64,000 nucleotides of DNA from Octopus vulgaris (lineage: Eukaryota): assembly GCA_951406725.2 (NCBI GenBank), contig OX597817.1, positions 83,080,001-83,144,000 on the forward strand. Direction: 5' to 3'. Under the pieces are notes generated by a model. The model saw only the letters and a program-made list of their open reading frames with translations, was not told the DNA's origin and did not search any database. Of the stretch, positions 56,173 to 57,620 are shown piece after piece. The translations under genes were made by a program, and so were the position numbers. The first letter of the stretch is position 1, and the number at the start of each line of letters is the position of its first letter.

Positions 56173-57620
56173 AGGTGCAGGTGTGGCTGTGTGGTACCAA
56201 ACTTGGTTCCAAAACCCATGGTCCTCAGTTCAGTCCCACTGTGTGGTAACTTGGCAAGTGTCTTCTGCTATACCCTCAGACCAACCGAAGCCTTGTCAGT
56301 GGATTTTGTTGGCAGAAACTGAAAAAATCAATTGTATATATATGTCTGTATATATGTAAGTCTATGTGTGTGTCTTTGTGTTTCTCCCTCATCACTGCTT
56401 CACAACTGGTGTTCGCTTATTTACATCCCCATAACTTACTGGTTTCACAAGAGGAAACTAATAGAATAAGTACTAGGCTTATCAAAAAAAAAAACACAAA
56501 GCAGTGTCTCATATTTTTGTTTGCCCATTCAGTGGTATCTATCAATTTATCATTGCGTGTGTGTCTGTGTGTATACATACCCATACACACATACACACAC
56601 CTACACACCCACCCGCACACACACATACATAGGTACAGATGTGGGTGTGTGGTAACTTGGCATGTGTCTTCTGCTATAGACTCAGACCAACCGAAGCCTT
56701 GTGAGTGGATTTTGTTGACAGAAACTGATAAGTACCAGGATTATCAAAATAAAAAAAAAACCACTAGGCAGTGTCTCAGATTTTTGTTTGCCTACTCAGT
56801 TGTATCTATCAATTTATCTTTATGTGCGTATACATATATCTATATCTATCTATTTATCTATCTATCTATCTATCTATCTATCTATCTATCTATCTATCTA
56901 TCTATCTATCTATCTATCTATCTATCTATATATATATATATATATATATATATATATATATATATATATATATATATATATATATATATATATATATATA
57001 TATATATATATATATATATATATATATATATACACCGGTAGGATTGACAGATCGATAGCTCCGGACCGGGTGAGTTTTCCCGTGTTGTATATATGTAAGT
57101 CTATGTGTGTCTTTGTGTTTCCCCCTCATCACTGCTTCACAGCTGGTGTTCGCTTGTTTACATCCCCATAACTTACTCGTTTCACAAGACGAAACTGATA
57201 AAATATGTACCAGTATTATCAAAATAAAAAAAGCCACCAGGCAGTGTCTCATATTTTTGTTTGCCCACTCAGTGGTATCTCAATTTATCTTTGTGTGTGT
57301 ATACATATATCTATATATATATATATATATATAAATACATATATGGATTTCGTAGACAGGAAATGAAACAAATCAATCGTATATATATATGTATGTATGT
57401 ATATATGTAAGTGCATGTGTGTGTCTTTGTCTCCGTGTTTGGCCCTCATCACTGCTTCACAATTGCTGTTCATTTATTTACATCCCTATAAATTAATGGT
57501 TTCACAAGAACAAATAGAATACGTACCAGGCTTATCAACATAAAAGAAGCACTAGGCTCATATTTTTGTTTGCCCACTCAGTTGTAACTATCAATTTATC
57601 TTTGTATGTGTGTGTATATA
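56173..57620 (+). repeat. Tandem array of four diverged SINE-A-derived units with microsatellite spacers
   Basis: Shared extra tail cagtgtctcatatttttgtttgcccactcagtggtatctatcaatttatc at ~56502, 56770, 57242 and 57557. Confidence 0.75.
57032..57087. pseudogene. Rearranged 18S rRNA fragment (56 nt)
   Basis: ACACCGGTAGGATTGACAGATCGATAGCTC (sense) joined to the reverse complement of CAACACGGGAAAACTCACCCGGTCCGGA. These two pieces are contiguous in eukaryotic 18S rRNA. Confidence 0.85.

Follow-up and report, generated by a model that had tools for sequence, protein, structure and literature searches.

The genome of Octopus vulgaris very probably contains a class of short inserts that were made as cDNA of mature, modified rRNA, and a 56-base insert in the window analysed here (64,000 nucleotides of contig OX597817.1) likely belongs to that class. 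How firmly we hold this insert to be cDNA is our own estimate. The insert (window positions 57032-57087) consists of host 18S 1783-1812 in sense orientation followed by 1783-1756 in antisense orientation, 100% identical, and its 5′ end lies one base 3′ of a position whose human counterpart is modified on the Watson-Crick face, a 2-nt microhomology blurring the exact break. An origin as cDNA of mature modified rRNA had been proposed in a sequence-only reading of this DNA. It is supported at the level of the class, by signatures at the m3U position of 28S and the m62A position of 18S, and it is weakened at the insert's own boundary, U1755, where an exact pile-up of ends is lacking.

The insert and its site

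The coordinates of the insert and its surroundings are collected in Table 1. The reference 18S is L024:4688-7330 on the minus strand (2643 nt, Rfam RF01960 full length). Unit coordinates are counted from 18S base 1, with 28S at 4479-9368, and the rDNA array of this genome sits on C20. The arrangement described in the sequence-only reading, two adjacent 18S pieces inverted with respect to each other and joined through TC, was borne out by blastn to the host 18S. The alignment that it called for gave complete identity for both pieces, and a contaminant 18S as the donor is ruled out, since the insert matches the genome's own rDNA array exactly. The pieces are direct neighbours in the donor. Compared with the antisense strand of 18S 1756-1812, the insert differs in two respects: 29 nt in the 5′ part are cleanly inverted, and one terminal base is absent. 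It is confined to mature rRNA sequence (18S 1756-1812) and carries no oligo(A) tail. Past piece A the genomic flank does not continue into GACT, as had been stated. The 19-nt pattern, reversed as a chance control, had 0 matches in the 2.8 Gb genome, and an Rfam scan of the insert region returned repeat-driven matches only, with no 18S match.

Table 1. Coordinates of the insert, its flanks and reverse transcriptase (RT) frames in the window.
Feature	Window position	Strand	Remarks
Piece B	57032..57061	+	host 18S nt 1783-1812, sense; blastn 30/30 against L024-derived 18S
Piece A	57060..57087	-	host 18S nt 1756-1783; 28/28; first base one nt 3′ of U1755
TC microhomology, 2 nt	57060..57061	.	joins the 3′ ends of pieces A and B
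(TATC)n then (TA)n tract, left flank	56829..57032	.	1-nt (A) overlap with piece B
TG microhomology, 2 nt	57086..57087	.	common to 18S end and target flank; family D3: 56347, 57086, 57398
Rest of SINE-like array unit u3	57086..57345	+	alignment with u4
Local tandem array, four partial tRNA-SINE-like copies u1-u4	56100..57640	+	68-93% alike over shared parts
Penelope-like element	9780-12709	+	two overlapping frames; 769-aa open frame
RT fragment, 244 aa	36507-37241	+	RVT_1, E 1e-15; RTE-like by eye

The base next to piece A in the donor, U1755, corresponds to human 18S 1248, the position of m1acp3-pseudouridine (PMC5066629; 10.1101/840132). The human base is overlapped by a HinfI site, is conserved across eukaryotes and lies in the loop of helix 31 (10.1101/840132). 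U1755 is within GACTC, which fits the HinfI site over human 1248. The earlier identification of the U in GAC-U-CAACACG as the m1acp3-pseudouridine site agrees with both the human position and the HinfI context. From this conservation we infer that U1755 is modified in the rRNA of this species.

The target is a unit of a local tandem array whose members we take, by eye, to be tRNA-SINE-like. Siblings u1 and u4 have TG ahead of the matching flank, so that the right junction is a 2-nt microhomology. About 60 nt lie between (TA)n and the TG point in u4; they are absent from u3, where the insert stands in their place. A comparison with sibling units had been suggested earlier; by this comparison u3 would once have had the empty site and would have lost about 60 nt. 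No target-site duplication of 8-35 nt is present at the insert, the TA repeat being all that is common to both flanks. Since the units resemble one another at 68-93% and the insert matches rRNA at 100%, the site is older than the insertion. The earlier placement inside a (TA)n tract holds for the left side, with its (TATC)n/(TA)n sequence, but not for the right, where the flank is the inner part of the SINE-like unit and not pure (TA)n.

Two abutting donor pieces in opposite orientation with microhomology between them are also found in L1-type twin-priming inversions. Compared with twin priming on sense RNA, the insert has its 3′ rather than 5′ ends joined, and the tail and target-site duplication are absent. 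With templated inverted insertions at breaks it has in common the inverted pieces from one locus, microhomology of 1, 2, and 2 nt, and the loss of target bases.

Stops and substitutions at modified positions

Human rRNA has four modifications on the Watson-Crick face: m1acp3-pseudouridine at 18S 1248, m62A, m1A1322, and m3U4530 (PMC5066629). Our census of genomic fragments is a sample at five places, with up to 2 mismatches; search patterns begin one base past each site, so that hits were picked blind to the base at the site, and a fragment is called spacer-free when no spacer lies within the 2-3 kb fetched. The 28S m3U and m1A sites were placed by conserved contexts. We take m3U to be position 8735, which is 32 nt after the Um-Gm-Psi triplet and matches the human spacing (4498 to 4530).

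At m3U, the pattern searches gave 42 and 44 matches, and 23 fragments were left after array, long, and spacer-bearing copies had been dropped. Eight of the 17 spacer-free fragments crossing 8735 are substituted there (6 T>A, 1 T>G, 1 T>C), against 22/564 at other T positions (P 9e-8). For T>A the figures are 6/17 against 6/564 elsewhere (P 2e-8), and 8735 ranks top for substitution among positions 8600-8850. Long or spacer-bearing copies are substituted at this position in 1/17. The five T>A carriers that were compared have no other derived change in common and are therefore independent; on the same ground, descent of the T>A copies from one ancestral variant is ruled out. Six further fragments begin at +1, +1, +2, +5, +5, and +7 of m3U, where about 0.72 starts are expected in 12 nt (P 1e-4, with 6 starts in the 100 nt upstream as background). 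Altogether, an RT-type mark, either a stop or a substitution, is present in 14/23 spacer-free fragments, a count that excludes array copies and copies reaching spacers or the locus edge. Among the copies dropped for reaching a spacer or locus edge are L124, which has C at the site and extends 7 nt beyond the end of 28S, and L148 and L153, which both have T. Also left out were L120 (a duplicate of L119), C32:1123509 (a rearranged array contig), and L193 (start at about +18 to +20, the pattern not covered by the alignment).

The clearest member of the class is L119:852-1562 (G000:C5:7247002-7247673). It covers 28S 8736-9367, that is, m3U+1 to the mature 3′ end (end 9368), with 100% identity. At the stop there are iterated snap-back repeats and then an inverted 23-nt copy that also begins at +1.

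The m62A block lies 19 nt from the end of 18S (PMC5066629). Searched as an exact pattern, the terminal 18 nt of 18S match the genome 31 times, and 30 of these matches were viewed. In three of these 30 (L166, L167, and L174) the insert is exactly 18 nt, running from the m62A block to the mature 18S 3′ end, and the flanks are unrelated; L185 is a fourth insert of the 18-nt type, with one extra A. In run X1, a 131-nt contig reads across L167 without differences (49 nt to the left, 33 nt to the right). For a control 18-mer (802-819), 0/30 matches start or end at the pattern ends. Two unrelated fragments near the control site, L209 and L215, both start at 18S 761, which is compatible with chance or a weak RT pause. 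It was also observed that the 3′ flanks of the inserts in L166, L167, L174, and L185 (each insert at about position 1501-1518) start with A and go on into SINE- or LINE-like pieces.

The 28S m1A site gives no support to the cDNA reading. Of the spacer-free copies 1/19 is mismatched (P 0.50); a single start was seen at +3 and no start at +1. In a 63-nt 28S fragment, L092:1489-1551, the sole difference is A>T at the m1A position.

At U1755 itself, the exact 19-mer from 1756 has 23 genomic matches, 22 of which continue through GACT, only this insert stopping. With 2 mismatches there are 31 matches and no additional stop at +1. The pile-up of 5′ breakpoints 1 nt 3′ of the U that had been predicted was therefore not found in exact form (1/23 exact, 1/31 near-exact). 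Patterns further 3′ add fragments starting at 1760, 1765, 1767, 1786, and 1788. The 5′ ends that follow U1755 are at +1, +5, +10, and +12, four in 12 nt against 0.72 expected (P 0.006 with this insert, 0.037 without it). The 100 nt upstream holds six true 5′ ends (1744, 1743, 1708, 1674, 1672, and 1661), counted by hand with internal deletions and interrupted copies left out. L231, a match of about 21 nt that begins near 1767 and has 2 mismatches, was omitted as possibly due to chance, the reversed control also giving 1 match. In vitro, stops and mutations at m1acp3-pseudouridine are about equal (PMC5066629). Among the spacer-free copies that read through 1755, 1/18 is mismatched there (L060, T>A), against a background of 27/645 (P 0.54). 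Taken alone, the U1755 boundary is suggestive only.

Marked inserts range from 78% to 100% identity, and the class thus includes old, diverged members. Target-site duplications were sought in 25 marked or near-site inserts and one clear case was seen, L076:1511-1657, a TPRT-like 18S 1767-1913 fragment with an 11-nt flanking duplication; a 12-nt flanking match at L154 was discounted because the flank is repeated. A preference for (TA)n, which the sequence-only reading had entertained, did not emerge: 8/85 fragments touch such a tract, with per-side P of 0.08 and 0.58 against a 3% per-side background. Nor is inversion the rule, as among the loci examined for it there are two same-locus inversions, this insert and L119. 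Numerous dispersed copies include ETS or ITS sequence and are DNA-derived. Near-complete rDNA units were also seen outside the C20 array (L028, L034, and L036-L039, on C1, C5, C11, C28, and C29); they extend from ETS to ITS or 28S and are 91-97% alike over the stretch fetched.

Origin of the insert and competing explanations

In our judgment the insert is probably a single-stranded cDNA of mature modified 18S that stopped at m1acp3-pseudouridine and was captured during break repair in the germline. An endogenous RT would have started on an 18S fragment at about nt 1812 and come to a halt at U1755. Next to the (TA)n tract a break would have opened, and about 60 nt would have been lost. To judge from the geometry, both broken ends may then have primed on one antisense cDNA: the right end would pair with the 3′ tip of the cDNA via TG/CA and copy A up to 1783, the left end would pair internally at nt 1783 and copy B to 1812, and the two new 3′ ends would join through TC/GA. 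Since both ends prime inward on one antisense template, pieces A and B would abut. The internal priming point, 1783, borders the 3-nt loop of a hairpin predicted for the cDNA. With the template antisense, the geometry would be that of twin priming, and repair of the polymerase-theta-like or template-switch kind would offer an analogy. The earlier description of the join as the opposite of twin priming therefore stands if the template was RNA; if it was antisense cDNA, the join is exactly twin priming. At yeast breaks, inverted insertions from one locus arise with 2-11 nt microhomology, and fold-back inversions form within free ssDNA (PMC11724301).

The RT of the initial step would most likely be the LINE enzyme that mobilises tRNA-SINEs. 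Of 85 fragments, four (L064, L074, L142, and L185) are found no more than 15 nt 5′ of a tRNA-SINE head and none at its other side (P 8e-6; the motif was taken from one of these four). These rRNA fragments are directly 5′ of the head in the same orientation and are likely template-jump chimeras. The adjacency suggests that the LINE RT which mobilises SINEs jumps to rRNA 3′ ends as a second template, and it points more to a LINE RT than to Penelope. In the Penelope-like frame of 769 aa, the matches to RVT_1 (E 0.001) and GIY-YIG (E 5e-4) are weak and do not reach the Pfam cut-offs, and the Penelope-like ORF closest to the insert is 44 kb off. Many 28S copies, one of them inside the array, break at 7846-7848 (L116, L117, L121, L125, L126, L134, L138, and L152), which we take to be the R2 target site; this suggests R2-like insertions. 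With the Penelope-like ORF, the RT fragment, and the breaks at the R2 site, several candidate enzymes are available.

An insert made in place is an unlikely alternative to capture of a free cDNA: a Penelope-like, R2-like, or LINE enzyme would have acted at (TA)n by TPRT or template jump, and B would have been micro-inverted later. RT ORFs are present within the window, L076 has its flanking duplication, and the four fragments preceding a SINE head point the same way. However, the insert has no target-site duplication and about 60 nt are missing, B is sense and A antisense so that one RNA-templated run cannot yield both, and a later inversion would have a 1-bp inverted repeat only. The insert is also far younger than the flanking SINE unit, and contact with (TA)n is not enriched. 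It should be noted that this explanation has the same cDNA origin as the one we prefer and differs only in the joining of the DNA. One that dispenses with RNA, and which we consider quite unlikely, starts from an rDNA flap or other ssDNA: the break would have captured it, template switching at microhomology would have inverted it, and its end would lie at U1755+1 by coincidence, fixed by TG. The commonness of ETS/ITS-bearing, DNA-derived rDNA copies in this genome favours it, as do the background of 0.06-0.12 5′ ends per base, by which any single base would show one end by chance in 6-11% of cases, and the junction microhomology, which could have trimmed a longer molecule to U1755+1. Moreover, same-locus inverted inserts in yeast arise without any RNA step (PMC11724301). 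Against this, the proportion of spacer-free m3U fragments that are RT-marked indicates that short inserts come in large part from cDNA. At the other block sites, 2 (m3U), 3 (m62A), and 0 (m1A) ends fall exactly at +1, against 0.06-0.11 expected at each, on average more than 10x the chance rate, and the insert is thus about ten times likelier to be cDNA than a chance DNA end.

Finally, the insert could be an assembly or library chimera that is absent from the germline, which we hold to be very improbable. No contig from four public runs (X1-X4) covers window positions 57010-57079, and both the complete identity to a very abundant sequence and the long (TA)n flank would suit such an artefact. 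Coverage holes prove nothing here, however, as the records were filtered, the repeat was skipped at 57010-57040, and about 80% of X1 was read. The absence of contig cover fits an insert that is recent, heterozygous, or private, and such an insert would account for the missing contigs. One X1 contig (147 nt, depth 18.5, one difference) starts at 57088 with two unmatched bases and may be an allele without the insert. The structure of the insert, with its three junctions, is precise, and the class has diverged members (78-93%) as well as one member, L167, that is confirmed by its spanning contig.

Relation to known systems and significance

The rRNA retropseudogenes, the LINE chimeras, and inverted templated insertions are already known. 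The first are short, tailless and 5′-truncated copies of cellular RNAs made by LINE RT in trans (Noll et al., 2015; PMC5322556), and the human set includes 2 from 18S and 10 from 28S. They are defined by target-site duplications and 3′ ends in loops, whereas the insert has no duplication and is inverted. Its informative end is instead the 5′ end, at a modified base, and the stem "modif" is absent from the main text of that paper. In the LINE/RNA chimeras (10.1101/2025.02.02.635956) rRNA pieces are fused to retroelements with recurrent 28S starts, and opposite orientation is attributed to twin priming. There the template is RNA and a LINE is co-integrated, whereas here the flanking SINE is older and an antisense template is needed; the words "18S", "modification", and "acp3" do not occur in the main text of that report. 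The break insertions of Yu et al. (2024; PMC11724301) resemble the insert in having two inverted pieces from one donor locus, with ssDNA as a possible substrate and microhomology of 0-4 nt to the break ends and 2-11 nt between pieces. They differ in coming from yeast mutants with DNA donors, rDNA being left out of that count, and their pieces usually overlap or are spaced, whereas those of the insert abut exactly and the donor is likely cDNA.

The RT signatures known in vitro (PMC5066629; 10.1101/840132) concern the same four sites and consist of a stop one base 3′ or a wrong letter. They are library artefacts that serve as assays, whereas here an endogenous enzyme would have fixed the marks in germline DNA. 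Human rDNA pseudogenes and SINE28 (PMC5381670; PMC4994717) provide many rDNA-like fragments and 3′-terminal 28S retrocopies. These are treated as DNA-level decay or as a tailed Pol III SINE, and in the portions of the two papers covered breakpoints are not tied to modified bases. In a search that took in few subscription journals, no paper was found that ties genomic rRNA fragments to stops or mismatches caused by modification.

What the marks offer is sequence-level proof, drawn from the chemistry of the template and not from tails or duplications, that short genomic rRNA fragments passed through RNA. They make RNA-derived filler at breaks separable from DNA-derived filler, a question in templated-insertion repair, and where the RNA of a species has never been studied, they let its modifications be read and dated from the assembly. 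It is likely that RNA modifications have left a fossil record in this genome. We lean, with some reserve, to the broader view that RT in the germline routinely copies fully matured rRNA, that stalled free cDNAs patch breaks, and that assemblies carry a datable record of modification. If this is true, assemblies would also record the enzyme's stop and misincorporation signature in vivo, and gains and losses of conserved and lineage-specific modifications could be mapped and dated from DNA alone.
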